DNA of 64,000 nt from Botryllus schlosseri (taxonomy: Eukaryota): contig CM119371.1 in NCBI GenBank assembly GCA_051294905.1, positions 40,302,001 to 40,366,000 of the forward strand, given 5' to 3'. Both the position numbers and the translations under genes were made by a program. Below the pieces are notes generated by a model that was not told where the DNA came from, did no database searches, and worked only from the letters and a program-made list of their open reading frames with translations. Below are positions 24,668-48,499 of this stretch, in pieces; within the stretch, counting starts at the first letter, position 1; every line of letters begins with the position of its first letter.

Positions 24668-24920
24668 AGTAGTAGACTTAGCTGGCTTTATTGCCCGCCA
24701 ATCCCAGAAGGCCACGTCTCCTTAATTGCCACGCCTACATTGCCACATCATCCGCCCATTGCCGCACCTATGGGACGCCTATTGTCACATCATCCACCCA
24801 TTGCCGCACCTTTAGCACACCCATTGCCACATCATCAGCCACATCCATTGCCACATCATCAAGCGCCACGCCCATTGCTACATCATCCACCCATATAACA
24901 CCCATTGCTACATCATCATG
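24668..24920 (+). repeat. Polinton left TIR with CCATTGCCACATCATC sub-repeats
   Basis: First ~50 bp are identical to the reverse complement of the right end; imperfect match thereafter. Inner boundary approximate. Confidence 0.9.
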
Positions 24921-25109
24921 ATTATGCGTACTGAGCTGTTTTTGAGAATATGAATTCTCGTGTAATACACTAAACTTTGAACTAGATTTCATAACGTCAT
25001 CACAGAGGAATCAGCCAACTATCTTGATCTAGGTTGTAGGTTCGAACCCTGTAGTCACCGCATTTCATACGATTCAGCACCTTTCATGTCTCCTAACTTT
25101 TACTCGGTC

Positions 25110-25704
25110 TCATTGAAATAGCATTGTATAGTGTACGATTTTATTTCGAAAAAAGAGCATATCAATGATATCGTTGATCGTTATTGCGCCGATTTGCGTG
25201 CTGAAATCCTCCAGATCGGTTGGTGTTTCGAGGTACACCGCTTTGCTGCCATCCGACGCTGCGATCCGAGTTCTTGCGTTCGATCTGACCGTTTTGTTTG
25301 ATGTAGCGATCGTTGGCTTGTAGTATATACGATACGAGCGGAAGGTCGGGATTAGGAACAACTACGCTGGGCGAATAGATGACGAATTCGTCAGCTGGAT
25401 TCAGAGGTTGATAATGCTCGATCCCGTCGCGAGTATACGTAACGACCAGACCTCCTTCATGCTTCAGAGTGGCTCGATATTTCTGAATGGTCCCGTTTGT
25501 GGAATGTACAAAGAGTTGATCCGAGGTCAATTCTGCTCCATTCGAAGCTTCGATACGTAATTTTGTGATGTCATTAAAAAGATACAAGTCTTTTCTATAG
25601 GGCCCCTGGGCTAGAATAGTATCTCCACGGATTGCTAGACTCATTCTTTGAAAAGAAATATCAAACATAAGTACAACAGTCATCACGCAATTCCACCTCG
25701 CCAT
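25110..25704 (-). CDS. Polinton hypothetical protein, possibly frameshifted near 25260
   Basis: 181-aa ORF (25162-25707) directly downstream of the IAP gene. An overlapping ORF ending at 25110 may be the true C-terminus. Start uncertain. Confidence 0.5.
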
Positions 25705-26242
25705 CAAATTTAGTCGAGTCTCTTCTTATATTAGGTGTCGCATAACAGACATTACGAATATATTGCAACCCCTTGCGCTTTATGAGAAAAGGACACGTAG
25801 GATAAAACTTTGCATGCTCGAGCCAGGGGTCATCGCACGGCAACCAATTTTGAAACAGCCCACCACACGAGAAACACTTTAAATGATCCTTATAGCCCAA
25901 ATAGAGCAATCCGCAGTCTGCAAGCTCGGTTCCAGAGGTATTGATATTATCCGGCCACCGCATAAATGTGCTTAGTCTACGAGCATAGCGTACCATGTTA
26001 TAGAAAACGGGGTCATTCAACGGGGAGACAGTTACATCTCTATGCTTCGCATAGCATTCATAAATCTTTTCTCCTCTGTTATTTATCATAGCTTGGTACT
26101 GTTCAATGGGACCCGTCCGAGTTTCATCTTCGCTTATATCTATGCTACTTGTGGTACCGATGCAAGCGCAGTTTAATGCAGCATAATTTGTAGGATCCAC
26201 ACTACGCTTAGGTAGCGAATCGCTTTGATCAATGTTCGACAT
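25661..26242 (-). CDS. Single-BIR inhibitor-of-apoptosis (IAP)-like protein
   Basis: RRLSTFMRWP...LADCGLLY...DHLKCFSCGG..NW..DDPWLEHAKFYPTCPF is a BIR domain with CX2CX16HX6C ligands. No RING domain visible. Confidence 0.93.
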   Translation of the reverse strand: MSNIDQSDSLPKRSVDPTNYAALNCACIGTTSSIDISEDETRTGPIEQYQAMINNRGEKIYECYAKHRDVTVSPLNDPVFYNMVRYARRLSTFMRWPDNINTSGTELADCGLLYLGYKDHLKCFSCGGLFQNWLPCDDPWLEHAKFYPTCPFLIKRKGLQYIRNVCYATPNIRRDSTKFDGEVELRDDCCTYV

Positions 26243-26279
26243 TGCTATCCAAATTGATATACTCTCATGATTAGTATGC

Positions 26280-26508
26280 TTTATATAGATATTGAGCTAT
26301 GCACCATCGAAAAATGTGCTTGGTGCCGATCGAATGATAGGCCCCGAGGTCATATCACGGAAATTAGAACGTCGACTGCTCACAGAAAAAGACACGTACC
26401 TCATATCCGTTGATGGTACGTATTATCATTAATTAGAATGCTAGTAAGAATGCCACGAGTACAATCACGCGCTCTCCGCATGCAAAGCGCATGTAGTTCA
26501 CTATATAA
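26280..26508. promoter_or_regulatory. Divergent promoter region with two TATA boxes
   Basis: TATATAAA on the minus strand (26287-26280) ~40 bp before the IAP ATG; TATATAA on the plus strand (26502-26508) ~40 bp before the ATG at 26548. Confidence 0.65.
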
Positions 26509-26547
26509 GAGAGGCTCGAATACGAACTAAACTATACTGCAAAAAGG

Positions 26548-27789
26548 ATGTCGACAATGGAGAAAGCAAGCGACGTAGTTAGCGAATCAACAACTATGAT
26601 TCCTGATAATCAAGCAGATACATTACCGATTGGTGATTTCGATTCCGATGTCGATGCAGAATTGATCGAAGTTACGATTGCAGCTGAAAAGAGTAAAGAG
26701 GCGGAAGCTAGTGATGATGACGTAACAATTATTGATGAGGTAGTGGCGCAATCTGATGAGGCTCCCTTAGCTGACGTGGTGACTCCGATCAATATCGGTA
26801 TACCACGACCGGTGATGGGACCAAGTGAACCTAAATCTAAGCGCAGACTCGACTTCGATAAGAGCATACTACCAGTTGGTGCTCAATTTACGCCTCCACA
26901 GAGTACTGATAACTCGACAGCTGTGACCAGTGCCCAAAGCCCACCTCACTCACCGATCATCGCCCCATGGAGAGTTTATTCGTCCCCTTTTCGCAATAAG
27001 CGACGTCGTATCGCTAATAACGTATTGGACGAGGAAAAGTTTGATGGTCTGATTTATAATTTGGATTACCCTCTACTTACGATTGATGATGGTGTATTAT
27101 TTTTCCGTTCTCTTGAGCAGAATATCGAGGAGGTGTTGTTTGTTGATCGAAAACGGAGCCCTAATTTTCTCCGTGCTGTGTTCATTATCACCCTAATGGA
27201 GGCTCATATGCATAAGAAATATTTTGCGCCTCACTTCTTTATAGAAAGCAAAAATCAAACAGGGAAAGAAGTGTTGATCGATTTGTTGCTCTCTGACGAT
27301 ATCGCCAACTTCCTAGATCCTTTTCATCCGAATCTAGAGGCGTTCAAATTTCACAATACCGAGAAATCTATTTCAGTGATGCGCAATTGCGGGTCTCTAT
27401 TTTTCGATAACAAGATGTTGCAGGAAGCCATTATGTACATTCATCGCAGTCCTTTGCAGTCTGCTTACGGACAAGTAAAGCCGTCGTCGTTTTGGCTCGT
27501 TTCTGAAATTCAGAATGGCAGTGATGTTATGTTACGCAATTTGGGAGGGATGTTTCAATCTAGCACAGTGATTATTCGCTTCGGTAATCAGTGTTATCCT
27601 TGCTACTTGCCTGAGATGAATAAGCATGCTCGCCGTAAAATCATACATGATATATTTGCTCGTACATTCATACCGTCAGATTCCGGATTTGAGAGTGATT
27701 CCTCTTATGTTGAAAACGATGTGCATGCACGTGAATTTTATGCCAAATTCGATGAGCTCAAACGACAGTACAATGACTGGTATATTTGA
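26548..27789 (+). CDS. Polinton accessory/early protein, 413 aa (acidic disordered N-terminus, NLS, short linear motifs)
   Basis: Long intact ORF behind a TATA box. Contains KRRLDF, S/T-P clusters, RNKRRR and DSGFES. Confidence 0.8.
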   Translation: MSTMEKASDVVSESTTMIPDNQADTLPIGDFDSDVDAELIEVTIAAEKSKEAEASDDDVTIIDEVVAQSDEAPLADVVTPINIGIPRPVMGPSEPKSKRRLDFDKSILPVGAQFTPPQSTDNSTAVTSAQSPPHSPIIAPWRVYSSPFRNKRRRIANNVLDEEKFDGLIYNLDYPLLTIDDGVLFFRSLEQNIEEVLFVDRKRSPNFLRAVFIITLMEAHMHKKYFAPHFFIESKNQTGKEVLIDLLLSDDIANFLDPFHPNLEAFKFHNTEKSISVMRNCGSLFFDNKMLQEAIMYIHRSPLQSAYGQVKPSSFWLVSEIQNGSDVMLRNLGGMFQSSTVIIRFGNQCYPCYLPEMNKHARRKIIHDIFARTFIPSDSGFESDSSYVENDVHAREFYAKFDELKRQYNDWYI

Positions 27790-28144
27790 TTTGTTTTCTC
27801 AGATTAATATGGAACCTTTTAATTGTGGTAAAGATCTAAATATGTTGGTACAACAATACGGTTCGGGAGACACAAGACGTACGCGAGATGCTACGACTGC
27901 TACCTTTGAAGGTTTTATTGATGACGATATCAAGAGAGTTGCCACTTGGCGAAAAATGGTCTCACTGGAAGGATATGGGGAATGGCAAAAAGATTTTCTC
28001 GTTATAGCAAAAAATGTGCTTAAAGATATCGATAAATTTGCTCCCAATGCCGATGAACTGCGTAACTTGGAAAATATCAAATTTCTATTTCTTTATGAAG
28101 CTTTCAAGTGTAAATTGCGACTGAAATACGGAATAAATTTATGA
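27773..28144 (+). CDS. Polinton hypothetical protein
   Basis: ORF 27626-28144. Likely start is ATG 27773 or 27809, overlapping or abutting the upstream stop. AATAAA at 28132-28137. Confidence 0.6.
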   Translation: MTGIFDLFSQINMEPFNCGKDLNMLVQQYGSGDTRRTRDATTATFEGFIDDDIKRVATWRKMVSLEGYGEWQKDFLVIAKNVLKDIDKFAPNADELRNLENIKFLFLYEAFKCKLRLKYGINL

Positions 28145-28177: not shown

Positions 28178-31100
28178 ATGGCTCGTCGAAGACGCTACGA
28201 GGAAGATGCTAGCTTTATCATCGATGAATCGCTCGGTTTTGATAACGACGCAACAGAGGTTTTGCAATCGCACTCCAATTCGAATATCGATTCCGAATGG
28301 ATTAATAGCAGGAGGGTTGCAAGAGGTGCGAGAGAGGCGATCAATGTACGTCTAATCGGGAGAGGTATGAATGATATTCATGGGCGCATGTCATCGATAT
28401 TCCCGAGAAGATTGCGACAATTCAAAGCTAACTATGCATACGGCTTCTTGCTGTATAATCGAGAGACAGAAAGACATAGCTATTTTCATCCGCAATCAAC
28501 CCGTGCTGTTTTGGATCTACCGACACCTATACTTTCACGGGAGGACTTTGATCGTTTCATTAACGAAATCGATTTATCAGCTGCTTACGAGCAAGCGAGA
28601 CAAGCAAGACCGGACACTAAGTTTTACTGCGTTGCTATATTACATATTCAATTTTTCTTGTATGAAATGCCACGAGTTTTACTGGGCTGCCCTAGTGCAT
28701 CGATATCTAAGGAGCTAAAAAACTGTCGTTATATAAGAACATTTATTCGAAATAGACGTGGAGAACTACTGAACGATTCGCTATGCCTCTTCCGTTGCTT
28801 ATCCCAGTTCATCAAGAAAAAACGAGACGAGAAGCACGTCGCACAATTGGCCTCTCAATTTCGTGAACGGTACCGTATCCCTATAGATGACGGTGTACCA
28901 CTCGATGAGTTGAGTAAAGTTGAGGAATGTTTTCACGTAAAGATACTTGTCTATGAAAAACGTGATCATCAAGCATTTTTATTGCGACAGTCCGAAGCGG
29001 ATGACCCAGTGGTTCATATACACATGGAAAGTGCACATTCTTGCCTGATCACAAATATCGAACTTTATTCCCAGACATTCTTTTGTGAATCGTGTAAAGT
29101 TTTCTTTCAGACTAAGGATAATTTAACGCGTCACCTAAAACGCAAATGCACAACGTCCCAAGGGAGGAAATATGCTAGCGGGGTATACCGACCGAAACCC
29201 ACCGTATTCGAGCAAATGGAATCCGAAGGCATTTTCGTTGAGAACCAAAAGAGATTCTTCCCGTACCGTATGTGTTTTGACTTTGAATCCATGCTCGTGA
29301 AGGATGAGCTCAGAGCTAATTCTGCAAAAGTAGAATACGTTAATAGGCACGTCCCCGTCTCCGTGTCCTTATCGAATAACGTAACGAATGAAACTAAAAC
29401 TTTCATATCCGACGGTTGTCCGCAGACGTTAATCGATGAAATGATCGGGTAAATTTATCGCGTACAGGAACTCGCCTCAGCTGAAATGCGAGAATCTTTT
29501 GCCAATGAAATAATCGAACTTGAGAATTTGATTGAAGAACGGAAATTGATCGATCCCTCTAATAGAAGAACCTATTTGGATAATATCTCGCTTCGACTCC
29601 ATACGTGGCTCGATCAAATACCCATAATCGGTTTCAATTCTTCGCGCTACGATCTGAATTTATGCAAAAAATATCTAATCAAATCCTTGCACAAGGAAAG
29701 CGGATTCTTCGTTTTGAAAAGGAACAGCGCCTATTTGACAATCGCAACGCACAGATTAAAATTTCTGGATATTTCGCTATTCCTGAGTCCGGGTTATAGT
29801 TTGGACGCTTACATGAAGCTATACGGGGATGGGGTGAACGCAAAATTTTATTTCCCCTACGAATATCTCGATAGCATCGAGCGCCTCGACGAAACGTCGC
29901 TACCGAGTCATGAATCGTTTTACAACGCGTTCCGCAATTCGAATATAACGGAAGAGCAATACGCAGAATGCGTCGCTGTATGGCAACGCGAGGGTATGAC
30001 CGCATTCCGCGATTTTCTCCGATATTACAACGAAGGTGACGTCATTGGCTTCTTAACCGCGCTGAATAACAATTTCGAATTTTACAAAACGCTCGGCATC
30101 GATATGTTCAAGGGTAACGTGAGCCTTCCGAATATAGCGAGTAGACTGATGTTTCGTGATTGCTACGATATCACTCTTCTGAATAAGGCCAATGCTGACC
30201 TTCACGAAACGATTCTGAACAACTTGGTAGGAGGTTTGTCACAGATTACGTCACGGTACGCTATGGCGGGTGAAACGAAAATACGCAGTCTTCGCTACGG
30301 TGACAGTGCTAAAACCGTCAAGAAAGTAGTAGGATATGACGCAAATGCCCTCTATTTGGGGTGCATAAATCAAAATATGCCAACGGGTTACCCTATAAGG
30401 TGGATTTATGATGAGGAAAAGCAAAAATTCCATAAACAGCGCGTTTGGCCTACTCATGCGGAGCGCGAATGGTTGGAATACGAAAGTCACGTTCGTGACA
30501 TCAAAATTCAGCACGCCTGGAACGGTAGTCAAGTGAGAATCGGAAATAAACGCCTATTTGTCGACGGGAACGCCGGTAAACTCATCTTTCAGTACGATGG
30601 GTGCTATTACCACGCTTGTAGGAGCTGTTTCCCCGATAAAGAGAACACCGAGAGGCGTGAACTCACCAAACAAAACACGGAATATTTGGAAAAATTGGGA
30701 TATACCGTTATCCGTATGAAGGAATGCGTTTGGACGAATATGAAACGAGACCCTGAAATTGCGCAATTTGTCTCAAAGTTCGAGCGTAAAGTCACGAAAG
30801 CTTATTATCTCACTGAGGCGCAGTTGCTCAAGCGCACGCTCGACGGCTCATTTTTCGGTGCAATCGAGTGTGACATTCATTGTCCCGACCATTTAAAATC
30901 GAAATTCGAAGAGTTACCTCCTTTTTTCAAACATATGGAAGTAAACGAGTGCGATATCGGTGAACATATGCGTGAATACGCCAAGGAAAACAATATTAAG
31001 TTTCCGAAAAAATTTCTGGGCTCTAGTTATTTCACGAAAAAACAGTTATTTAATACGGATTTGCTTCAATGGTGCTTGAAAAGCGGCATGATCGTGACTC

Positions 31101-32003
31101 GCGTATTCCAAGCTGTCGAATATGAACCAAAACAAGTTTTCACACCCTTCGTTGAGCGAGTATCCTCTGAGCGTCGCAAAGGCGATGTCCTCCCAAAAGA
31201 TCCGGCCCGTGAAATGGAGGCGTTGACATGGAAGACGATTGGAAATAGTGCTTTTGGCCGCACTATTCAAAACCCTAATAAATATAGGGAACACGAATAC
31301 GTTACGTTGGAAGAATTACCGTCGTGCGTTGAAAAAAGTAGCTACGCGTCCGCTAAACATTTGTGACGAAAACCCAGTCATTGTGGGCTTCTTTATATTC
31401 TGCTGTGCCAAGCTGAGAATGCTCCAGTTTCTATATGACTGCCTACATGTGTATTTGGACGATAGCGATTGGGGTTTTCTCGAAACAGATACTGATTCGG
31501 CGTACATAAGCTTAAGCTCCGATACGATCTATTCTCTCATCAAGCCTTCCATGAAAAAACAATTTTTTGAAAATCACGACAAATGGTTCGTGGCTCGCGC
31601 ATGTGCAGAGCATAAATGTGATTTTGAACGAGATCCCGTTGGTTTTAAAACTGATAAAGCATGCTGCATTGAGGTTCGCAATTACTCGAAGCGTATACCG
31701 GGTTTATTCAAAGAAGAGTGGATCGGAGATGGGTTTATAGGCCTAAATTCCAAGACCTATTATTGCAAAGGCGACACCGATAAATACAGCTCGAAAGGGC
31801 TTCAAAAAACGGCCAAGAAAACTTTCAAAGATTTCAAAGGCATTCTTCAAAATAGATCGATCACGGGTGGCGTCAATAGTGGTTTTCGTTGCTATGGGAG
31901 CGATATGTTTACGTATAAGCAATATCGAAGTGCTTTGAGTTATGGTTATTATAAAAGGATTGTGCTTGATGATGGAATTCATACATTGCCTTTATCTCTG
32001 TAA
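28178..32003 (+). pseudogene. Protein-primed family B DNA polymerase (pPolB), disrupted
   Basis: Exo motifs DFES, GFNSSRYD, YNEGD; polymerase motifs YDANALY, KTIGNSAFG, DTDS, KTY; zinc finger CESC..H..C. ORFs 28178 and 29486 are in the same frame, separated by TAA at 29450-29452. A frameshift at ~31340-31366 leads into the ORF ending at 32003. Confidence 0.92.
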
Positions 32004-32006
32004 TAA

Positions 32007-32624
32007 ATGGATCGAATACGTACATTGCATGCTCCGTTTCGGATGATCGTAATTGGTCCGAGCAGTAGCGGGAAGAGTTATTTTACTTACGAGTTGGTGA
32101 AGAACGCAGAGAAGATGATTAGACCGGCTCCTGAAAAAATTGTATGGCTGTATAATAATTATCAGGCGTTGTACGATAAAATGAAAGGGGTAGAATTTTC
32201 GCAAGGGCTCTCCGAACTCAAAAAGTTACAGAAAGGAAATAGGCACGTTCTCTTGGTGATCGACGACATGATGACGGAAGCGAAAGAGGCTAGAGATCTA
32301 TTCACTCGATACAGCCACCACGCAAAGACTAGTGTCGTGTTCATATGTCAAAATTTGTTCTATAGGGGTCAAGGCTTTCGGGATATGACCTTGAGCGCGA
32401 GCTATATCGTGATATTTAAAAATCCCCGTGATGCGAGTCAAATCAGTTTTCTTTCACGTCAAATGTTCCCGGATAAAGCCGGATTCCTTACGGAGGCTTA
32501 TAAAAAGGCAACTCGAACACCGTTCTCGTACATACTGGTTGACGTGACGCAAGAGACAGACGAAAATTATCGTCTTCGCAGCAAAATATTCCCACATCAA
32601 AAGTTGACGGTATATCAACAATAA
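32007..32624 (+). CDS. A32/FtsK-like DNA packaging ATPase
   Basis: Walker A GPSSSGKS, Walker B LLVIDD, and SHH, QN and FKNPRD motifs typical of Polinton ATPases. Confidence 0.95.
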   Translation: MDRIRTLHAPFRMIVIGPSSSGKSYFTYELVKNAEKMIRPAPEKIVWLYNNYQALYDKMKGVEFSQGLSELKKLQKGNRHVLLVIDDMMTEAKEARDLFTRYSHHAKTSVVFICQNLFYRGQGFRDMTLSASYIVIFKNPRDASQISFLSRQMFPDKAGFLTEAYKKATRTPFSYILVDVTQETDENYRLRSKIFPHQKLTVYQQ

Positions 32625-32659: not shown

Positions 32660-33067
32660 ATGTCGAAGAGGGGAAGTAACATATCTCGAAAACGATTGAG
32701 CGACTATCACGTTAAATTAAAACTTTTGAAAAACGCTAAAGGGAAACAACGAAAAGAACTTTTGTCGAACAATCAATTTTTAAGTTGCGTTTGCCAGTGC
32801 GTTCATAACTTGGCTTCAGGGACAGTACGTATCTCCCCGTCTAGAAAGTTGAGGCTTGGAAAACACAAATCCGATATCAGACAATTGCTGGCGCAAAAAA
32901 CTCGCAGAGGTCAACGGAGGGTGCTACAAAAGGGTGGATTCCTCTCAGGTATAAAGATTATGATAAAATAGCAACTTTTTTCTAACTAGTCTGTTTTAGC
33001 TATATTAGGCGCTGCAATCCCCGTCATCGGGAGTCTGTTGGGTAAACTTTTCGGAAAGAATGCGTGA
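32660..33067 (+). CDS. PM/protein-X-like basic virion protein, two exons (32660-32948 + 33000-33067), 118 aa
   Basis: Basic N-terminal domain ending QKGGFLS. Removing the GT..CTAAC..AG intron 32949-32999 adds AILGAAIPVIGSLLGKLFGKNA*. Confidence 0.75.
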
Positions 33068-33398
33068 ACTACAATTCCCCGCATTTCGAAGCAAGGACGA
33101 ATGGGAAAAGAAATTTGATAAACATATATCGAAAATTAAAAGCTCTCCATTGAATGCTTCCGAGAAACTTGCTCTGTATAGGCATGGTATTGCTCAACTG
33201 AGAAACTTGAGAAAAGACGTAGACGCAGCGACCGCCCGCCCTCCCGCCGCACACACGGGGCTCGCGAGCCCCGTAGCGAAAAAAAAGCGCCCGCAAAAGA
33301 AACGCCCGCGCCGGATTCCACAACCTTCGTTTCCCTGGCTTTATAATAGACAGCGTAAGCCTAATCCCCGTATATACGGGAAAGAATGGGAGACGTAG
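33060..33398 (+). CDS. Basic putative core/DNA-binding protein
   Basis: 112-aa K/R-rich ORF overlapping both neighbours in the structural operon-like block. Confidence 0.65.
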   Translation: MRELQFPAFRSKDEWEKKFDKHISKIKSSPLNASEKLALYRHGIAQLRNLRKDVDAATARPPAAHTGLASPVAKKKRPQKKRPRRIPQPSFPWLYNRQRKPNPRIYGKEWET

Positions 33399-34384
33399 AC
33401 TATTTTGATCCGAAACAGCCCAAATCGTATAGGGGCGCTCATTTGCAAAAGGAAAAAGAATGGCTTAAAGGACAAGATACTTATACTTTTCATTTTCCGT
33501 TACGTAAGAAATTTAGGCGTGAACGTGTAGTGGTCTCCGGTATCAATGCTCAGTTTCAGAGCGATTTGATGGATCTGCAATCTATTTCAAAGTACAATAG
33601 CGGTTTTCGTTTTGTGGTGGTGGTGATTGATATTTTTAGCAAATACCTTTGGATGATAGCGATTAAAAATAAAACTGCTTCAAGTATGATTTCTGCTTTC
33701 AAACGTGTGTTTCGTGAACGCGTACCGTTAGTGTTACAAACCGATCAAGGTAGCGAATATACCAATCGCGCTTTCCAGAATTATCGAAAGGAGAACAAAG
33801 TTAGATATTTCTATACGAGGAGCGAATTAAAATCCTCTGTCGTTGAAAGGGTGATTCGTACTATGAAGGCGATTATGTATCGATTTTTCACAAAAAATAA
33901 CACGAGGAATTACGTGAGCGCTCTCGATGACTTAACTTACTCCTACAACAGGACGTACCATCGTAGCATTGCCATGGCCCCAAACCAAGTGAATTCGTCT
34001 AATCAGGAATCGGTTTGGAGAAGACTTTACGGGTTTCAAGAAGCTAAACAACCCGACCTCGCTGTAGGAGTACCCGTCCGTATATCGAAAATTCGAAATC
34101 TTTTTGAGAAAAGCAGCCTACCCAACTGGCAACGGGAAATTTTCTATATCGCAGACGCCCAAAAGGGGGATCCCCCAATGTATCGCTTACGTGATTACGG
34201 TGGTGAAGTCATACAGGGTAGATTTTATAGAGAGGAGCTCCAACGCGTAAAAGAACCGCAAACTTGGCGTGTCGAGAAGATTATAAGAAGGCGTAAACGC
34301 GCGGGACGAGAACAGTATTTAGTGCGCTGGTTGGGATATGGAAGTGGATTCGACAGCTGGGTCGATAAGAAGGATATCGTCTAG
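33386..34384 (+). CDS. Retroviral-like (rve) integrase with C-terminal chromodomain
   Basis: DDE triad in QSDLMD, QTDQGSEY, VVERVIRT. C-terminal VEKII...YLVRWLGY...DSWV chromodomain. Confidence 0.96.
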   Translation: MGDVDYFDPKQPKSYRGAHLQKEKEWLKGQDTYTFHFPLRKKFRRERVVVSGINAQFQSDLMDLQSISKYNSGFRFVVVVIDIFSKYLWMIAIKNKTASSMISAFKRVFRERVPLVLQTDQGSEYTNRAFQNYRKENKVRYFYTRSELKSSVVERVIRTMKAIMYRFFTKNNTRNYVSALDDLTYSYNRTYHRSIAMAPNQVNSSNQESVWRRLYGFQEAKQPDLAVGVPVRISKIRNLFEKSSLPNWQREIFYIADAQKGDPPMYRLRDYGGEVIQGRFYREELQRVKEPQTWRVEKIIRRRKRAGREQYLVRWLGYGSGFDSWVDKKDIV

Positions 34385-34547
34385 TCGGAACCTTTATCAG
34401 TTTTTGGCGCAACTAGTAATCATACTGGTCATCGTATCGTTCTCTCTCTATAATCTTACCATTTCGAATGGGAACAAAGAGCTTTGGATATCACTGCTCT
34501 CCTCTTGCATTGGTTATATGCTCCCGAATCCCAAGCTCAAAATATGA
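34338..34547 (+). CDS. Small two-helix membrane protein
   Basis: FLAQLVIILVIVSFSLYNLT...LWISLLSSCIGYMLPNP. Its stop overlaps the next ATG (ATGA). Confidence 0.65.
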   Translation: MEVDSTAGSIRRISSSRNLYQFLAQLVIILVIVSFSLYNLTISNGNKELWISLLSSCIGYMLPNPKLKI

Positions 34548-38200: not shown

Positions 38201-38211
38201 ATGTATATGCG

Positions 38212-38217
38212 AATAAA
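38212..38217 (+). terminator. Polyadenylation signal after the structural block
   Basis: AATAAA 11 bp after the protease stop. Confidence 0.55.
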
Positions 38218-38359
38218 ATCAATAGTTTAAAAGTTTGCTTAGTACGTTTAAGGGTGATATTCGCTACGTTCATTATAGCAATCATCTCAAAGTAGTAGAC
38301 TCTAAATCAGCAGTAGCGACTTGCTTTCGGTTAGGTGATAGTGGCTACATATTACCATT

Positions 38360-40743
38360 ATCTAGCAAGAACCAGGAATTTGTATTGAGTGACTTCGCTC
38401 CTACAGCAAACGCAGCTTACATTACGGCGGTACTGAACATCGAGTAATAAGCGGGACTAGGCAGGCTACCCTTAATACGAATTTGCATTTTGCTGGTACA
38501 ATCTATGCTATAGTTGAGCGACTTTGATACGACCTCAGCACACTTCTTTGATATAGCTGCGCAACGATCTAGACTTGAACGTCGGCGTCTGGTACAGATG
38601 TGATGTTATAGCTTCAACACATAGCGTTTTAGGAGGTAAATTATAGCATAGACATAGGTTATAGATTTTATTCACCATCGGAAAAGCATCAGTGCACTAA
38701 CTATTAAAATCACGCATCTATAAGCAGCAGCTTATGGACTAGTGGCTTCATATTATCATCATCTAGCAGGAGCCAGGAATTTGTATTGAGTGACTTCGCT
38801 CCTATAGCCCCAGCAAACGCAGCTTACATTAATACGGCGTTACTGAACATCGAGTAATAAGCGGCGCTAGGCAGGCTACACTTAATACGAATTTGCATTT
38901 TGAGGGCACAATCTATGCTATAGTTGAGCGTAAAGCTAGAATTCATAGACTAACATCCATCTCAAATCCGAAGTGCATACCCGCGCAGAGTAATTATAAC
39001 CAAATTTAGTCCAAATCTATACGGAAATGTAGCCTAACTCGCCTGCGTCATCAGCCGAAGCGTATAGCGCGATAGCAGGAATGTGAAATTTTCTGAGCGT
39101 AAATTGCGAGTGCGATGTCGGTGTTTTGATCTGAAATGAAAAAAATTTAGCTTCCATCCGCGGCGGCGTAGCGCATCTTAGAATAGTCGATAAATTATAT
39201 AGCTATGCTATTCGTGCAGCTATAAGCATAGGTTTATATTGGCTATATATTTTATTCACTATCAGAAATGGTAAGATAAAGCATCACTGCAATAGCTATT
39301 AAATCAGCTCCATTACGTATCTAAAAGCAGCGGCTTATGGGGTTGTAAAATCAGCATAATCTCAGTAGTTAGATGCTTGCTACAGCTTGCAATTTACCAA
39401 CCTTAGGTCGTGAGTAAAGCTAGAATTCATAGACTAACATCCATCTCAAATCCAAGTGCATACCCGCGCGGAGTAATTATAACCAAATTTAGTCCAAATC
39501 TATACGGAAATGTAGCCTAACTCGCCTGCGTCATCAGTTGAAGTGCAGAGCGCGATAGTTGTGATAGAAATGTGAAATTTTCGGAGCGTGAATTGCGTAT
39601 GCAATGTCGGCGTTTCGATCTGAAATGAAATGAGCGAATTTAAATATAGGCGATAAATAATATATATACTGTTGCTGTAGCTAATTAATTAATTCATAAT
39701 ATTGTAATCACACTGCGCGAAACGAGTAATAAGCGGGACTAGGAACTTGCATGTACATACGAATTTATCCGGATTCGAGCATATCCTCGGTTAACATTAT
39801 AGCCGTGCACAGAACTCATTATTACGTTATTTGCTATTTAAAATGATACGGGAAATCTCGGCGTAATTCGATCTGCGCGCATTATCCATTTATGCTCCAA
39901 TGCGTTATGCGACTTTAGTATAGGTATTGGATCTAATATATTATATAAAACTTGTACGTTGCTATATATATCTTAATCTGAAGTGCATTGCTGCATCGAA
40001 AAATTATAGCTATACGCGATACGCTGACGATTTTTCAATATGGTCAAGAAATGAAATAACCCACCTTTAGTGTTGCGTAATCTGCCTTGTCATTATATGC
40101 TTGTAACTAGTTCCGGGCTTGCTTGCGGTGCTAGTCTTCTTGGCTGCATGAAATATGATGTTTTAGCTTCAAACTCAACGCATGAGCATGTCGTATTTGT
40201 AACCGCAGCGAGATTCGAGTAATAAGCGAGGCTAGATAGTCTACCCTTAACAGAGAACTTGCACATACATTCGAATTTATGCGACTTCGGCTATATTGCA
40301 TAGCCGTGCACAGAACTCATTATTACGTTATTAGCTATTTAAAATGATGCGGGAAATCTCGGTGTAATTCGATCTGCGCGCATTATCCATTTATGCTCCA
40401 ATGCGTTATGCGACTTTAGTATAGGTATTGGATCTAATATATTCTATAAACATGTACGTTGCTATATATATCTTAATCTGAAATGCATTGCTGCATCGAA
40501 AAATTATAGCTATACGCGATACGCTGTCGATTTTTCAATATAGTCAAGAAATGAAATAACCCACCTTTAGTGTTGTGTAATCTGCCTTGTCATTATATGC
40601 TTGTAACTAGTTCCGGGCTTGCTTGCAGTGCTAGTCTTCTTGGCTGCATGAAATATGATGTTTTAGCTTCAAACTCAATGCATTAGCATGCCGTATTTGT
40701 AACCGCAGCGAGATTCGAGTAATAAGCGAGGCTAGATAGTCTA
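38360..40743. repeat. Polinton non-coding tandem repeat array (~400-500 bp units), continues at 46864-47480
   Basis: CGAGTAATAAGC motif at 38441, 38851, 39723, 40216, 40716 and 47340. 38935-39150 matches 39415-39630. 500-bp period in 39723-40716. Confidence 0.9.
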
Positions 40744-43700
40744 CACTGTAAATCCGCAAGGTCGTATTGAACACTTCATAACACTTTTTTCTGCGTACAG
40801 ACACACTTTTGGGGCATATAAACGCATTGGGCTATTATCGTCGCAACGCTTCTGCGTATTTCTCCGTTTACATGTAACACTTCGCCACTGCGGCTTATTT
40901 TCGAGAAAATTTATACTTGGTAATTCATCATCAATTTTGCATTCATAAACCATCGGTACGTTTAGAGATCACGTTAAATCATGGTATATGTAAAATAATA
41001 TTACTCACTTGACCCAACACTAAGTTTAAGGGTAATATTTCAATGAAATATGCATATTTCCCTGTGAGGCAGAGGGGTCACCACCTTCGTTACGGTAGAG
41101 GGCGCTCGTTTTCAGTTTGGATTTGAATTGGTGGTTCGTCAGGCTTCAGGCAGAGAGTAGGGTACACGAAAAAACTTGGCGGAATGGATATATTGAAGCA
41201 GTTTCTGCTACCTGATGGCGTAAAGGATCATAACATCCATGTACTGTAAGGTATGGAAATGCGGTAAATGTTATTGAATGTATGTAATGTGAGAATAGTC
41301 ATAAAATGAACTCGTTTTGACATTGCAGTAACGTCGTTTGTTTTAGATGTTTTAGTAGGCTACTGATATCCCTTATACATATGAATGTTCTTTAGATGTT
41401 TTGTAGTATATGATTCGTCTGATATTATTGCTGGATGACCGAGCTTCGAATCTGATAATATACCAGGCTGCGACCAGGTCCAGTACTACGGTACTGATGG
41501 GAAACTGCTATAAAAGTAACTTTTTTGACATATGGATAAAGGGATGTTCTCTCTATCCACACTGAAATATCACTATGCATGTAGGCGATATTGTGGTCCA
41601 TTGTGGACAAGTACTGCAATGTCAGCAATTGAATGCCGACATGACAGTCATGCAACGGTTTTGATTGTTTTTCAACTGCAACACATTTTACACTGTACTG
41701 TTTATCCCAAGTGGTAAGGTGTTAACTAAAGCGATTTTTTGACATGTCAAAATAGGTCAAAATTTTGTCAAAATTGTACCGTTACGTCAAAAATTGCCAA
41801 AATTCTTTACAAAATAAAATTTGGTTGGCAACTTGCATTTCGTTTGTATCATAGATGATTGCACTGTCGGTGAACATATCATTTTACAATTTACATCTTG
41901 TAGCCTACTTTATAGTCCTACCGTTGTAGACGGACCATCGTCTGCTCATTGTGAATCATAAACTGTCAAATGAAACAAATACTCAACGTAGCCTATTGCA
42001 CTATCCTAACTGAAGCAAGACTGCGTGGGCATTGGTTCTTTTATTAGAAACCGTGTGATGAAATATTGCGATGTAGACAACTTTGTCATAATGAGAGAGA
42101 GAGAGTGCAGTGTACGCACAACTTCAGTGTTGCCGGCCAACAACTGCAGCTGGTGAACGTTCTTTCTTCATTCTTGCCAAGCTACTTAGTTAGGACAGAC
42201 ACTTTCTACCCGAATATGTAGGAAAGTATCTTTCGTTGTACTACAACAAATTTTTAATTATTTCTACCATAATACGAGATGTAACTAATACTGAATTATT
42301 CATGGGTCCAGATTTCGATAAAATAAATTCTTTTTCATGTAAAAATTTGTCAATTTTCATGCTAAAAGATTTTTTCAGGTCAAATTACTTCGGAAGAACA
42401 GACAGCTCCAGCCAGAAATAAAGATAAGTTCCGGTAATACAATTCTAACACTATGTGAGAAACACCTAATTTAAGTACATGGGGTCAAAATTAAGTTTTT
42501 CATCATCAAAATATGTGTGAATTTGAATTTTGTAGTCAAAATCTTACCTTTTTAGGTCCAAAAAATCGCCCCAATAATAGCCAAACAAACAATCTTTTCA
42601 ACAAACCATGGATCACAAGGGGTAGTATTTGTTTTGCCCAATCCCCAAATTTGACTTATCTAAGTTTATTGTGATACGGTAACTGAACTAAACTCTATTT
42701 TGCAGGTAGTATGTATTGGACTTGGCACCTGTTTGAAATGCATTTGCTGTATGGAATACTGGTAAGCATCACGGTGTTTTGTAAGTGAACTGGTATATCC
42801 TTAGAGAATGAATTTGATTCTGTTGCAATCGGTTACCTTTGTGATAAAGATTTTTATGAACGTTTGCTGATAAAATTTCACAAAAATTGTTAACAATCCA
42901 GGAAGTATACTAACTGTGCCAGAGTAAAATTGGTGGTAACGTCATGTGCAACTTTCCATTCCATTACTTAATTATTCTACGAAAGACACCCTTCTGTCAC
43001 GCACAACCTATTGCAGAAAAAAAAACTGTATCCAGTATGATATCTGCGTGACTACTGAGCAGTTCATTTGTATTGCAAATTTTGGCAACAAATATTTCTT
43101 TTCAATAGTCTTGGATTGATCCTCAAATTCGTTCAACTGATGTCCACTCTTTAAAAAGAGCCCCCTGGGTGTACCGTGCCTGCGCTATCAGACAATATTG
43201 ACAGTGACGTGAGGAGTCGTTCTTAACGGGTTTTGTGCCGGCACAGTCATCTTATGTGATACAGTCCTTTGTCTCAAGAGCCCATGGATACATGTGATTA
43301 TGTAAGCCTATTTATTCATTTTATATATCACCATTGATTATGTAATTTGCTGGTTTTTGCAGTCCTACTTTTCTCACAAACATTCTCGCAGAGTAACTTA
43401 CGGGCTATTCGATATGAGCTGAAAAAGGCTTCATCTGTGTACACTGAACACTGAACAGAGATGTAGTTGAACGTAATGAGCTCGTGTAACTTGTACTTTA
43501 ACTATTGCTTACTGAACTATATTGGGCTAGGTCAGTGGTTCTCAACCTGGGGGGATGAGCACCTCTCCTGCGCTTCTGTAACCTATCTGTGTGAAATATT
43601 TATATTTACTTCTGCATCAAATTTACAATTTCCTTTGTAATGTTTCGTATTTTCTAGGAGCAGCATTTGGATTTGTCCAGTAAAAAAAGATCCGCCATGG

Positions 43701-46700
43701 CACGCCACAAATCAGGGACTCATCAAGCCTGGGTTGCGGCTGATGGAAAGAATATGAAAAATTCCCCCAAGGTGCAGGTAGTATGTATTGCAATCGGCAC
43801 CTTCTTGAAATGCATTTGTTGTTTAAAATACTGGTAAGCATCGTGATGTTTCTTAAGTAAACTGGTATATCCTTAGATCATGAATTTGATTCTGCTGCAT
43901 TCGGTTATTTTTATGAATGTTTGCTGGTAAAATTCCACTAAAATGATTAACAATCCAGGAAAGCATGCTACTCGTGCTGGAGTAAAATTGATGGTACGGT
44001 CACATGCAACTTTCCATTACAATAATTATTTGTTCTATGAAAGACACCCTTTTGTCACATACAAATGTATCCAGTCTGATATCTGCGTAATACTGAATGC
44101 TGGTGACGTCATATTTTGTGATACGATTTTGATGTACATCGTTCTTTCGAGCTCTCTACTAGTTGCTGACGAGTCTCAGCCGAAAATATTCGGGCTCATT
44201 TCAATATGCATATACTATTCAATTTTATATTGAAGTTTTGCACCTCAAAGAAGCTGTCCGAATATTGAATAGTTCCCTTGTATTGCAAATTTTTGAAACA
44301 AGTATTTTCTTTTCAACAGTCTTGGATTGATCTTCAAATTCATCCAACTGGTGTCGACTCTTCGTAAAGACCCCCTGGTTCTACCGGGCCTGTGCTAACA
44401 GACAATGTTGATAGTGACGTGAGGAGTCATCTGAACGGATTTCGTGCCAGTGCAGTCATCTTTTGCGATAATACTTTTGCCTCAAGAACCCATGGAAACA
44501 TGTGGTTATGTAAGTCTATTTATTCATTTCATATATCACCATTGATTCTGTAATGTGCTGGTTTTTGCAGTCCTAATTCTCTCAATAACTATCTATATAT
44601 GCGATATGAGCTGAAGAGAGGCTTGATCTGTGTACATTGAACAGAGGTGTTCTTGAATGTAAAGAGCTGGGGTAACTTGTATTTAAACTATTGCTTACTG
44701 AACTATACTTGGAACATCAAATTGAGATCATTTCCCATGTCGTGCTAATTCCAAATAATTTCGTTAATTGAATTTAATCAGGAAGGAAGGATTTGAAAGA
44801 TTGAGAACAATTACAATTACTGCAATGAAGGAAAAGTATTCAACACCTTCCATAAGATGTCACGAATTTTTTTGTTCTAAAGACATTCAATGTGTCCTTT
44901 GTCTGGTATATTTTCTCGTCTCAATTCAAAGCAGCTATAAAATCTTAGAATCGAAGTTATATGTAAAGCCTACCGTATGTCAATTATTGTAATGGAAATC
45001 CAAACCCATAGGAATAACGATTCTACTATATTTATTTTCGGATCTTGTTTGCATTCAATTACATTTTCAGTAAAACGAGGTTGATGAAGTCAACTGTCTT
45101 CTTATCCAAGCCAAATTGAGAGACAAGCTAATACAATCCAAGACCCAAGCGCATGTCTTATTGAAACAGGTATCGTAATCTTTCTGTTTTGTGGACCATA
45201 CAAATTTACATAGACCGTTCGTAGACGTACATAGACGTTCTGCTATAAATTTCATTCTGAGCTACAGTTCTGCATTCTCACTGTGGCCTGTGCGTCTGAA
45301 TGTCAATGTAAATGTCAAAATGGCCGAATTGAAAAAAACGCAGACCTAATTCAAGATATTTTTATTAGTCGTTATGCGAATTTTAGTCCTTCTCAGTGAT
45401 AGGATTTCACATTTACCCGAGCGCCTTTCCTGCGCTTGTGTAACCTGCATGTGTGAAATATTTATATTTATTTCTGCATAAAATTTAGAATTTTCATTGA
45501 CATATTCAAAACTTTGGAATTTAATCACATTTTCAAGGAGCGCAACTTGGAGTCGACCAGTAGAAAAGAAGCAAACACCATGGCACGCCACGAATCAGAG
45601 ATTGACCGATCCTGGATCGCAGCTGATGCCAAGAATATAAAACTGCTTCAGTGAAAATGGAGTATTCAGAAACATTGTTGACGTTTTGAGCTACTATGCA
45701 TTGGATTGTCATACCCCGAAGGAGTGGTTCTCAAACAGGAGAAAGCATTTGAAGGGGCGTGAAGCTGCTGTCAACTAAAATCTTTCTCGCACATGGCAGC
45801 TTCTACTTATCTCTCTGTGTATGGTCAGAATTTAATATTTGAATATTCTCTCATCAACAACTATTACCGTCACTGCCATCCAACTATGAGTTGGGATTTC
45901 TAGCGTTCTGGTTGCTTTTTTTAATTTCATGATACGACGATAAGGGGTGTGTGAAATTTTATTGCTATCACAACGGGGCGTGTCCAAAAATGTTCAAGAA
46001 CCAGTGCCCTAATGACTTCCAGATTTCATATTTTGCAGCAGACTGGTAAATAACAACAAAATCTTTTCTGTAAATCTGCAAAATTTGTATGGACTCAAAG
46101 AAACGATTTCTTTGTTATTTAAACAAAAGTGATTGGCATTAACCTGATATAAATACTTGTATTGCACGCCCAAGAATATTTTTGATGCCTGGTTAGCAGG
46201 CCCAAATTCATTAAGAGTAAAAAATACTTTGTTACTTGCTTATCGTGGTAGTGGTAGTGAAACTGATACATTCATTGTTTATTTACAATAAAATTATAAA
46301 TTTACAAGCCATAATTTGATCAATTTTAAATTAGTTTTAATGATTTGTGTTGATCATGTTTCCGTCAACGGACGTAACCAATGAATTTGATTCCATGCCA
46401 TTGTCACGAAAGTTGAAGATACTAAATGATATTTTGTTATCGCTATCCCTAATTCCCTATGCATTCATTTCCATGATTGAACGAGCTGCATGATATTTGT
46501 AGTGAGTTTGCTCTTGATCATTTATGATGTTCGTGATTTCATGGACTATTCCGGAAACGGCTTCAACTGCTGATCTGAAATTATGAAACCCTGTCACAGC
46601 AGCTATTGGAAATTTCAATGTTTGTACGTATTTCATCACCCAGGTTGGGTGTTTTAAGCGTCATCTATTCATGAATCAATAAAATCTGATTTTATTTTGA

Positions 46701-46863
46701 GCCCTGCGTTCCGGTGACTAGTCAACCAGCGACTTTGAGGCTGAACACTTTTTAGGTAAACACTTTTAATTTAAACACTTCGCAACACTTCTAGGCGTTC
46801 AATTTTTGGATCACGTTTCGTGTTCAATTTTCCGGGTTGAGCAACACTTCAGAATTTACAGTG
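40744..46863. mobile_element. Non-autonomous CACTG-ended (EnSpm/CACTA-like) DNA transposon nested in the Polinton
   Basis: Ends CACTGTAAAT / ATTTACAGTG with a TA duplication. The empty site GATAGTC-TA-CCCTTAACAGAG is visible in the sister repeat at ~40235-40255. Confidence 0.85.
42700..44710. repeat. Diverged direct duplication inside the nested transposon
   Basis: 42700-43520 resembles 43775-44710; 43550-43770 resembles 45420-45640. Confidence 0.75.
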
Positions 46864-47480
46864 TACCCTTAACAGAGAACTTGCATATACATTCGAATTT
46901 ATGCGACTTCGGCTATATTGCATAGCCGTGTACAGAACTCATTATTACATTATTAGCTATTTAAAATGATGCGGGAAATCTCGGTGTAATTCGATCTGCG
47001 CGTATTATCCATTTATGCTCCAATGCGTTATGCGACTTTAGTATAGGTATTGAATGTAATATATTCTATAAAACATGTACGTTGCTATTTATATCTTAAT
47101 CTGAAGTGCATTGCTGCATCGAAAAATTATAGACAAAAATTATAGCTATACGCGATACGCTATCGATTTTTCAATATAATCAAGAAATGAATTAGCCAAC
47201 CTTAGTGTTGCGTAATCTGCCTTGTCATTATATGCTAGTTCCGGGCTTGCGGTGCTAGTCTTCTTGGCTGCATGAAATAGGATGTTTTAGCTTCAAACTC
47301 AACGCATTAGCATGCCTAATTTATAACCACAGCGAGATTCGAGTAATAAGCTAGCCTAGATAGTCTACCTTTAACAGAAAACTTACATATACATTCGAAT
47401 TTGTGCGACTTCGGCTATATTGCCGGTTAACATTATAGCCGCGCACAGAACTCACTATTACGTTAGCTATTGGAGAAATC
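46864..47480. repeat. Continuation of the ~500-bp Polinton repeat array
   Basis: Near-identical to 40243-40740. Confidence 0.9.
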
Positions 47481-47704
47481 CCAACGTAAATCAATCTGCG
47501 TTCACAAGTAAGCTAATGCTGTATCGAGAAATTATAGCTAAATTGAGTTTAAATTGGTACGAAAATGCATTGATCTTACCTCGTCTGCGATGCTTGCATC
47601 CCTGCGCACATGGCAATACTTTTAACAGAAGTGTGAAGTTTTCAGAATGCGAATTGCTTTACGTCGGAAGTAAACATTCTAATTCGTATCGCCAGCGCGG
47701 CGTT

Positions 47705-47850
47705 TTCTTGGAAACGCAACTATATTTAGAATGTTCTAATTCCCATTATCGATGTGGTCCGACTTCTTAGAATCGCAACTATATTTAGAATGTTCTAATT
47801 CATATTGTCGATGTGACCCGACTTCTTGGAAATGTAAGCAACTATATTCG
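47705..47850. repeat. ~59-bp tandem repeat, about 2.3 copies
   Basis: CGCAACTATATTTAGAATGTTCTAATTC repeated. Confidence 0.8.
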
Positions 47851-48104
47851 TACCACATTTGCACGCGTCAATTTCTTGGAATAGTATTCAGCAATATGCG
47901 CGGCGCATGAGCTTTGCGTGATCGTAGGCCTTTATGGTTGCGATATCTGTATTATGAAGTTGCATTTGCAGAATTCCCCAAAATCATTGACTAATTAATG
48001 ATGACACAGCTGTTATAGTACACAATAACTCGAAAAAGGTGTTGTCTCGGAATTTAAGAGAGAATCGGTGGTTATATTCTCAAAACAGCTCAATACGGCT
48101 AGTT

Positions 48105-48181
48105 TGCTCAATAGTCTGGTGGTGAGCGACGTGACATTATACCCATCCAAACCAGGTTCGATTCTAGCTAAGGTAAGTTTT
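48105..48181 (+). ncRNA. tRNA-like Pol III unit (A box, B box, T-run)
   Basis: TAGTCTGGTGG (48112) and GGTTCGATTCT (48155) at tRNA spacing, TTTT at 48178-48181. Cloverleaf stems are poor. Confidence 0.4.
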
Positions 48182-48269
48182 GGCGTGGTAATGAGTGTCA
48201 TAGGTGCAGCAATCGACATCGCGCTGGTTGATGCGGCGCTGTGCACCATATAGATGCGGCAATCAATGC

Positions 48270-48499
48270 GGTGATGATGTGGCAATGGATGATGTGGCAC
48301 TATAGGTGTGGCGCTTGATGATGTGGCACAGATGATGTGGCAATGGGTGTGCTATAGGTGCAGCAATGGGTGAATGATGTGACAATAGGTGTGCTATAGG
48401 TGCGGCAATGGGCGGATGATGTGGCAATGTAGGCGTGGCAATGTAGGCGACGTGGCCTTCTGGGATTGGCGGGCAATAAAGCCAGCTAAGTCTACTACT
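48270..48499 (-). repeat. Polinton right TIR
   Basis: Reverse complement of 24668-~24900. Inner boundary approximate. Confidence 0.9.

Follow-up and report, generated by a model that had tools for sequence, protein, structure and literature searches.

Limits, target site and siblings of the element

The 64,000 nt of the Botryllus schlosseri genome analysed here (assembly GCA_051294905.1, contig CM119371.1, positions 40,302,001 to 40,366,000 of the forward strand; hereafter the window, from the first letter of which positions are counted unless a contig is named) contain a 23.8 kb element flanked by a perfect repeat of the hexamer AACATG. With a probability that we put at about 85%, this is a full-length, polymerase-defective copy of a multi-copy, adintovirus-like Maverick/Polinton family, which was inserted in a fold-back miniature inverted-repeat transposable element (MITE) with a 6-bp target-site duplication (TSD), and was later hit by a 6.1-kb transposon that duplicates TA. 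An annotation made from the letters alone (the sequence-only reading) had described the same stretch as an adintovirus/Polinton with an intact virion module; its coordinates proved exact at both ends, and the assignment to a Polinton of the adintovirus type and the openness of the virion open reading frames (ORFs) stood up, whereas the element as a whole is not intact. The limits of the element and of its target are:

24419..24667, left arm of the fold-back MITE, 16/32-bp tandem units, insertion target, outside the element
24662..24667, TSD AACATG, left copy, at the left border
24668..48499, whole element, 23.8 kb with the nested insert included
24668..24836, plus strand, left terminal inverted repeat (TIR), 169 nt, with the (AGT)2 end motif
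48331..48499, minus strand, right TIR, 169 nt
48500..48505, TSD AACATG, right copy, at the right border
48500..48727, right arm of the fold-back MITE, host target, outside the element

Both element ends start with AGTAGTAG, and as AGTAGT opens each terminus, the Maverick (AGT)2 motif is present; in vertebrate Mavericks, (AGT)2 ends and 6-bp TSDs are a published signature (PMC8097293, in the part of that study available to us). The 169-nt arms are 95% complementary, i.e. differ at 5% of positions. The TIRs and the perfect 6-bp TSD reported from sequence were thereby recovered, and the target repeat provided a further line of evidence on the TSD. This repeat is MITE-like, of the fold-back type and about 480 bp long, with arms made of 16/32-bp tandem units, and it occurs elsewhere in uninterrupted form (at least 40 copies scored of 1,724 candidates), the match to the left arm stopping at the 24667 junction in nearly all. 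In the MITE copies that were fetched, a single AACATG stood between the abutting flanks in 10/11, with a variant hexamer in the eleventh, and since these paralogous empty sites carry AACATG once, it is a genuine duplication. One of these empty sites lies about 120 kb upstream on the same contig, in a segmental duplicate (G000:C1:40205216-40208483, locus L002) with 92–94% identity to the element flanks over at least 3 kb covering both of them. The insertion hit the centre of the fold-back MITE, for which paralogous empty sites exist. Inverted tandem repeats beyond the TSD were also considered as extended TIRs, and were rejected as part of the MITE found uninterrupted at least 40 times. Uninterrupted MITE copies are traversed by single-cell RNA reads.

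The element belongs to a high-copy family and has tandem arrays at the locus, circumstances that would fit a repeat collapsed or misjoined during assembly. The TIRs are nevertheless rightly placed, the TSD is perfect, and an exact TA duplication of its own borders the nested insert within a tandem unit; as the flanks moreover rejoin exactly at 10/11 paralogous empty sites, we consider an assembly artefact very unlikely, to the point of being negligible.

A six-frame search with the major capsid protein (MCP) of the element (99 scored matches of 274 candidates) detected at least 35 MCP copies at ≥96% identity, this one included and all of them open, next to older groups at ~81%, 70% and 34% identity. 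All 34 close siblings were fetched, as 68 stretches, for gene comparison, which answers the proposal to look for sibling copies with at least 34 close ones, and the number of siblings in which an ORF was open ranged, by gene, from 19/25 to 34/34. An inverted repeat between stretches was found in 20 siblings and both AGTAGT edges in 13 only; of these, 11/13 had perfect 6-bp TSDs, every TSD being different, and 11/13 were 17.0–18.1 kb long, the remaining two measuring 14.2 and 14.9 kb. At terminal positions 7–30 the two ends of one copy were 97% identical (14 copies), and identity across copies was 47% (91 pairs, ungapped), though the genes are ~97% identical. The termini are thus hypervariable among copies and matched inside each copy. 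The left-end 493 nt, which extend past the TIR, were also found in the genome as inverted pairs 14–15 kb apart (for example C6:10257022/10271627, C16:15199384/15213940 and C14:25146094/25160701), and an MCP copy of a 67–69% subfamily, split over two frames, lies about 160 kb downstream of the window (G000:C1:40526019-40527294).

Virion and integration genes

The rightward genes between the polymerase and the right non-coding region are listed below with the number of siblings in which they are open and with the ratio of non-synonymous to synonymous substitution rates (dN/dS), which was calculated for 13 genes by the Nei-Gojobori method as a pooled pairwise value from ungapped full-length copies only.

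32007..32624, plus strand, A32/FtsK-type packaging ATPase, 205 amino acids (aa); Pfam Pox_A32 E 3.2e-9, above cut-off
32660..32971, plus strand, small basic ORF, 103 aa; open in 30/34 siblings, dN/dS 0.06
33060..33398, plus strand, small basic ORF, 112 aa; open in 32/34 siblings, dN/dS 0.18
33386..34384, plus strand, rve integrase with C-terminal chromodomain, 332 aa; Pfam rve E 2.6e-12, Chromo E 2.6e-8
34544..35353, plus strand, penton-like paralog, 269 aa; open in 31/34 siblings, dN/dS 0.42
35350..36072, plus strand, penton-like paralog, 240 aa; open in 28/34 siblings
36050..36421, plus strand, basic protein, 123 aa; open in 33/34 siblings
36471..37748, plus strand, MCP, 425 aa, double jelly-roll model; open in 34/34 siblings, dN/dS 0.14
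37745..38200, plus strand, protease-like ORF, 151 aa; open in 31/34 siblings, dN/dS 0.066

The ATPase, integrase, capsid and protease ORFs that the sequence-only reading had called open are indeed all open, and Pfam supports the ATPase and the integrase. By eye, the ATPase has Walker A and B motifs; it is open in 31/34 siblings with a dN/dS of 0.055, and a PDB sequence search with it gave nothing real. The integrase carries its Chromo match at aa 294–331 and a D,D-35-E motif (by eye), and is open in 30/34 siblings.

The MCP was modelled with AlphaFold2 from an 11-sequence alignment (pLDDT 68, pTM 0.71), and the failure of this ORF to model as a double jelly-roll, which had been named as one of the results that would refute the sequence-only reading, did not occur. 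In VIA, the top 16 matches were all double jelly-roll capsid proteins, led by those of Sputnik (Z 22.1, root-mean-square deviation (rmsd) 3.5, 353 residues aligned), PBCV-1 (21.5), faustovirus (20.8) and mavirus (20.2), with adenovirus hexon (13.8) and PRD1 (13.4) further down; the 16th match had a Z of 7.7 and the next, unrelated match 6.2. In BFVD there were 106 matches at E≤1e-3, including a bracovirus-borne protein (25% identity), adomavirus LO7, virophage MCPs and two proteins labelled adintovirus, namely the capsid proteins of 'Adintovirus sp.' (E 6e-15) and of a Drosophila-associated adintovirus (E 3.7e-9). In sequence comparisons, Pfam gave DJR-like_dom at a sub-threshold E of 0.005 only, and a PDB search with the MCP profile gave chance matches only (a bacterial effector at E ~0.005). 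An exhaustive sequence search returned 4,573 representatives at E≤1e-3, so that the mere 2 relatives found in a word-indexed search reflect a limit of sensitivity; the names of ten relatives were 'uncharacterized protein F54H12.2-like' (damselfly) and 'hypothetical protein' only. Scanning IMG/VR with the MCP alignment gave 69 pattern matches, of which 0 were confirmed, scanning PHROGs with 13 ORFs of the element gave 0 families, and a Pfam search at E≤10 with eight ORFs that are small or without assignment gave a sub-threshold DUF7950 match only.

BLASTP shows the 269-aa ORF to be a paralog of the 240-aa ORF (E 2e-10), and Atlas places them close to unnamed proteins from Preplasmiviricota and from animal elements (score 0.98), from which we infer that they are penton or minor capsid proteins. 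Position and composition suggest that the 123-aa basic protein is possibly a core protein, and the 151-aa ORF, with its His, Asp/Glu and Gln..Cys motifs (by eye), likely encodes a cysteine protease of the adenain/Ulp1 type.

Dozens of germline copies with TSDs, inverted left-end pairs in the genome and very low expression would also be expected of a family that spreads only as an intragenomic transposon, with capsid genes that are relics or repurposed and with no virions formed. The MCP is open in all 34 siblings at a dN/dS of 0.14, however, with 0.055 for the ATPase and 0.066 for the protease, and because constraint of this kind would hardly persist if particle formation were not selected for, we regard purely intragenomic spread as unlikely.

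The polymerase gene and its lesions

Upstream of the ATPase lies the polymerase gene:

28178..32003, plus strand, protein-primed family-B DNA polymerase (pPolB) gene, broken; recognised by homology and motifs

In this copy pPolB consists of three reading pieces. The first lesion is an in-frame stop at 29450-29452, and the second a loss of 53 nt at about 31332-31345, which shifts the frame; all 24 siblings with full coverage have a sense codon at the former position and the 53 nt at the latter, and the lesions are therefore private to this copy. They were overlooked in the sequence-only reading, the title of which implied an intact element. Across the siblings, pPolB was open (~1,292 aa) in 16/34, interrupted in 8, partly covered in 2 and represented by its last 232 nt only in 8, and these last 8 also lack the genes for the 413-aa and 172-aa ORFs described below, all through one internal deletion. 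The stop was also considered as the border of a naturally separate terminal-protein gene, and this was rejected, as the Exo I motif precedes the stop and 24/24 siblings lack it.

With its pPolB lesions, its nested transposon and 5% divergence between its TIRs, the copy is defective and ageing, and could at most be complemented in trans by its siblings; it is an ordinary and likely immobile member of the family. This bears on the alternative of a live and autonomous endogenous virus at this locus, able to replicate and to form virions unaided, as the open ORFs of the virion module, integrase and ATPase and the intact TIRs and TSD could suggest. Against the private stop and frame-shifting gap in pPolB, the 6.1-kb foreign transposon in the right non-coding region, the divergence of the TIRs, a sense RNA depth near zero and no RNA sign of read-through or splicing that would restore pPolB, a live virus is highly improbable.

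The middle piece of pPolB matched 278 longer proteins at E≤1e-3, many of which are ~39–40% identical with E ~1e-130 and carry PF03175 and C2H2 fingers; those with names come from records of Styela, Branchiostoma and Apostichopus. By eye one can recognise Exo I/II and Pol A/B/C motifs, and also a Cys-box-like and a His-box-like motif in the first piece. Pfam gave no direct polymerase match on the pieces, with zinc-finger matches only, and a PDB sequence search with a pPolB piece gave nothing real. At about 30623-30772 (aa 380–429 of the middle piece) there is a sub-threshold Pfam RAP-domain match (E 0.0015) within a Cys/His-rich insert. The insert may be an endonuclease-like insertion, as described for polinton pPolBs in the part of PMC11161782 that we could draw on.

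The left-end accessory block and the 413-aa protein

Between the left TIR and pPolB lies a block of four ORFs, two on each strand:

25141..25146, minus strand, AATAAA poly(A) signal, directly after the 180-aa ORF, by eye
25162..25704, minus strand, 180-aa ORF, no Pfam family; open in 29/32 siblings having it, dN/dS 0.23
25661..26242, minus strand, inhibitor of apoptosis (IAP) homologue, single BIR, no RING, 193 aa; Pfam BIR E 3.3e-18
26280..26509, intergenic region with two outward TATA-like boxes, 26280-26287 (minus) and 26502-26509 (plus), by eye
26548..27789, plus strand, 413-aa protein; open in 19/25 siblings, dN/dS 0.25
27626..28144, plus strand, 172-aa ORF (111 aa from the ATG at 27809); open in 21/24 siblings, dN/dS 0.13

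All four accessory ORFs are under purifying selection (dN/dS 0.13–0.25). The IAP homologue is open in 29/32 siblings with a dN/dS of 0.20, and shows by eye the spacing CX2CX16HX6C of the BIR zinc site. The 180-aa ORF likely starts at its second ATG (25614), and the 172-aa ORF has a weak similarity to DUF7950 (E 1.6e-4, below cut-off). Adintoviruses are described, in the passages of PMC8502044 at our disposal, as carrying IAP/Bcl2 homologues, accessory genes and 'Oncoid' genes upstream of PolB; neither LXCXE nor paired-CXXC 'Oncoid' motifs were seen by eye in the 413-aa protein. The sequence-only reading had called the block a host-manipulation module, which fits the IAP homologue; the predicted fold of the 413-aa protein is instead that of a replication-type superfamily 3 (SF3) helicase.

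The N-terminal ~170 aa of this protein are acidic and predicted to be disordered, and for the C-terminal part (aa 178–407) the structural model predicts the fold of an SF3 helicase, in which both the Walker A and the Walker B motif are degenerate. In VIA, the top 13 matches of the model were all SF3 helicases (Z 12.2–8.8): E1 at 12.2 (rmsd 3.4, 178 residues aligned), adeno-associated virus Rep at 11.9, 11.8 and 11.3, B19 NS1 at 10.8, NrS-1 at 10.7, SaPI5 at 10.3, D5 at 9.2, the PrimPol of African swine fever virus (ASFV) at 9.1 and SV40 large T at 8.9, with generic AAA+ proteins at ≤8.7. The 23 BFVD matches at E≤1e-3 were mainly parvovirus and densovirus NS1, D5-like and other helicase-primases, and Atlas, with a score of 0.89 that we treat as no more than a lead, pointed to the same helicase families. 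At the level of sequence, a word-indexed protein search at near lengths found no relatives of the 413-aa protein and its profile had 0 matches to PDB sequences. Homologues are present in older Polinton subfamilies of the same genome, at 72%, ~50% and 33–43% identity and all open, and in their alignment the C-terminal domain is conserved and includes a GxxxxGK-E motif.

The predicted fold of residues 178–407 thus resembles that of the SF3 helicases (papillomavirus E1, parvovirus NS1/Rep, polyomavirus large T and poxvirus D5), with the succession of strand, P-loop Lys and helix and with an invariant Asn after the fourth strand. This residue, Asn323, follows strand 314–319 at the position of motif C (sensor 1), an equivalence that is positional only. 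In the Walker A motif, SKNQTGKE, the Lys is kept and the Ser/Thr is replaced by Glu (Asp in one) in 11/11 aligned sequences, and at the Walker B site, placed by the secondary structure of the model and not by residue-level superposition, the strand 275–278 is followed by R-N-C, with an invariant Asn and Cys instead of a conserved Asp/Glu. Unlike these helicases, the protein has no origin-binding or nuclease domain but an acidic, predicted-disordered N-terminus, and it is ≤16% identical to its best matches by fold (7–12% in VIA), with no sequence-level match found. In our reading it is an SF3-fold protein in which ATP hydrolysis has likely been lost.

In the literature, a superfamily 3 helicase (S3H) is mentioned for MELD viruses of non-animal hosts in the consulted part of PMC8502044 and is a separate gene in maviruses according to passages of PMC11161782, and the main text of PMC8097293, on vertebrate Mavericks, does not contain the word 'helicase'. 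In the main-text passages of the adintovirus papers that we covered, no SF3-fold gene is described for animal adintoviruses, and the supplementary gene maps of PMC8502044 may show a similar block. A broader proposal would be that an adintovirus-type Maverick family keeps, beside an exonuclease-bearing pPolB, a constrained SF3-fold 'pseudo-helicase', like E1, NS1 and large T in fold, without canonical ATPase motifs and in an early position upstream of PolB, and that the termini, ~50% divergent among copies yet matched within each, are the end-copying footprint of protein-primed replication. We put this forward as a conjecture that is more doubtful than probable. If true, the pseudo-helicase would connect the Polintons of a chordate relative with proteins by which small DNA tumour viruses replicate, and the matched termini would mean that each insertion derives from a separate replication lineage.

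Transcription of the element family

RNA was surveyed in one bulk run (6% read) and three single-cell runs (3–4% read), the reads of which are not assignable to this particular copy. Plus-strand RNA was low and concentrated near the 3′ ends of genes, for example at 31607-32145 with a depth of 0.7–1.9. The minus strand gave CT..AC joints as read on the plus strand, corresponding to GT..AG introns, across the polymerase and virion genes. These antisense joints, which were seen in a few raw reads and in contigs from three runs whose type is not recorded, span the region 27500-40065, with mostly canonical GT..AG introns at 29321>31146, 32129>34459, 34588>37075, 37124>38006 and 39619>40065. Antisense exons were placed at 29203-29321, 31146-31225, 32022-32129, 34459-34588, 37075-37124 and 39526-39619. 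A further antisense joint, 34460>25366, was present in all three single-cell runs (1, 2 and 4 reads) and leads into the 3′ part of the 180-aa gene, ending at its poly(A) site; a fusion ORF created by this splice was considered and rejected, as no ATG-led frame joins across it. The antisense RNAs seem to begin in or beyond the tandem-unit region at the right end.

Reads were abundant on the minus strand at 25139-25396, and these continue into unlike sequence at both borders. They were rejected as RNA of the element; a 20-nt piece of the diverging sequence does not occur in the window. The paralog from which they come, well expressed and polyadenylated, lies elsewhere in the genome and shares the 3′ part of the 180-aa gene, and its poly(A)-tailed reads stop about 13 nt past the AATAAA (loose end 25138).

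The left block could be an early transcription unit, in which outward TATA promoters would drive the IAP homologue and 180-aa ORF leftward and the 413-aa and 111-aa ORFs rightward, with the genes from polymerase to protease expressed later, as in small animal DNA viruses. TATA-like boxes are found about 40 nt upstream of both first ATGs (those of the IAP homologue and the 413-aa protein), AATAAA follows the 180-aa ORF, all four ORFs are conserved and constrained, and adintovirus accessory genes are typically upstream of PolB, as far as the portion of PMC8502044 that we had shows. RNA-seq, proposed with the sequence-only reading as a check on its divergently transcribed block, did not bear the idea out: near-zero reads fell on the IAP and 413-aa genes, an assembled RNA contig (X1 record 2, 26022-26810) spans the intergenic region, and the clearest transcripts are antisense, spliced and end at the poly(A) site of the 180-aa gene. 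Temporal classes are moreover unreadable from the steady-state RNA of uninfected tissue. On balance we hold an early unit to be possible, with the odds leaning against it, and antisense transcription of the family is better supported than a divergent early unit.

Weighing of the assignment, proposed mode of replication and known relatives

Several results weigh against a polymerase-defective adintovirus-like Maverick/Polinton as set out above, or soften its parts. Particles, free linear DNA and new insertions were not observed, and the account of replication, packaging and the functions of the IAP homologue and the 413-aa protein is inferential. The raw reads sampled contain hardly any sense RNA, with a depth of 0–0.6 on the IAP and 413-aa bins in the four RNA runs. 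The dN/dS values, which are 0.055–0.42 overall and 0.055–0.18 for most core genes, with the 269-aa ORF at the top, are below 1 and as such record past constraint on the lineage and not present activity. The penton assignment is weak, as the 269-aa and 240-aa ORFs have no Pfam or PDB sequence match, and the protease-like assignment is weak too, as the ORF has no Pfam match and in the PDB matched, around its His motif, only the S273R protease of ASFV, without significance (E 0.53). For the 413-aa protein, Foldseek gave no match in the PDB at E≤1e-3, E1 coming first at 2.5e-3, and confidence in the model is moderate, with a pLDDT of ~60–86 in the C-terminal domain and 57 overall, from an 11-sequence alignment drawn from one genome.

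A Maverick of this type would be expected to work as follows. Replication of the family is likely protein-primed on linear DNA and likely begins at the (AGT)2 ends, where the 3-nt reiteration would permit a jump-back start, by analogy with adenovirus ends; such a start would also account for the matching ends within each copy. The ATPase likely packages the DNA into a capsid of the MCP and the two penton-like paralogs, which the protease would mature, and the integrase likely integrates the element, generating the 6-bp duplication. The genes of the left-end block are predicted to be early, with the IAP homologue blocking host cell death and the 413-aa protein acting as a non-hydrolysing replication or regulatory factor.

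Maverick/Polinton elements were reportedly described by Kapitonov and Jurka in 2006. Their size of 15–20 kb, TIRs, (AGT)2 ends and 6-bp TSD (vertebrate Mavericks, Barreat and Katzourakis 2021, PMC8097293, as far as the text was available) are all shared by the element, as are pPolB, the rve integrase, the A32/FtsK ATPase, the double jelly-roll MCP and the protease-like gene, and most genomic copies of Mavericks are likewise degraded. It differs from them in its four-gene left block (IAP, 180-aa, 413-aa SF3-fold and 111-aa), in having two penton-like paralogs and in its right non-coding region, which is made up of 3 kb of 400–500-bp tandem units. With adintoviruses, as presented in the portions of Starrett et al. 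2021 (PMC8502044) and Buck et al. 2024 (bioRxiv 10.1101/2024.03.25.586562) that were accessible, it has in common the C-terminal chromodomain of the integrase, accessory genes upstream of PolB and an animal association, and these sources also report IAP homologues and, in some genomes, duplicate pentons; the MCP is alike by fold to the two BFVD proteins labelled adintovirus.

Virophages infect protists and are dependent on giant viruses. Their solved MCPs, those of Sputnik (3j26) and mavirus (6g45), are among the closest capsid folds (Z 22.1 and 20.2), and mavirus further resembles the element in having an rve integrase, pPolB and a separately encoded S3H (PMC11161782, in part). The pPolB of mavirus is without an exonuclease domain, whereas that of the element keeps Exo I/II motifs (by eye), and the helicase-fold protein of the element is without canonical ATPase motifs.

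With at least 35 close copies in the genome, and with IAP and accessory blocks already published for adintoviruses, the locus is an ordinary, decaying copy of an abundant Maverick family. Alone it adds little, and it serves as a clean reference for the full gene map of the family. The leads that it offers are an SF3-fold protein without ATPase motifs beside pPolB, matched variable termini and spliced antisense RNAs over virion genes, all three of which bear on the replication of the element and on its reading or silencing by the host.

The right non-coding region and its nested transposon

Downstream of the protease-like ORF the element contains:

38201..40743, right non-coding region, first part, ~400–500-bp tandem units
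40744..46863, nested non-autonomous transposon, 6,120 bp, with a 10-nt TIR CACTGTAAAT and a TA duplication
46864..48330, right non-coding region, continued

The tandem-unit region (3 kb) is a family trait, with matches in 29–33/34 siblings. The nested insert is missing from 33/34 siblings; one tandem unit is broken at 40743/40744 and taken up again at 46864. Without it the native length is 17,710 bp, in line with full-length siblings (mostly 17.0–18.1 kb) and with the ~17.7 kb that had been estimated from the sequence. No ORF longer than 100 aa, a transposase included, was found within the insert. The TA duplication and the short (10-nt) TIR would be compatible with a non-autonomous Tc1/mariner-like element. 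At least 40 copies at 96–99% identity (40 scored of 189 candidates), all beginning at the first base, make its family young and abundant. Internal direct repeats of about 1.1–1.9 kb were also seen in the nested element.

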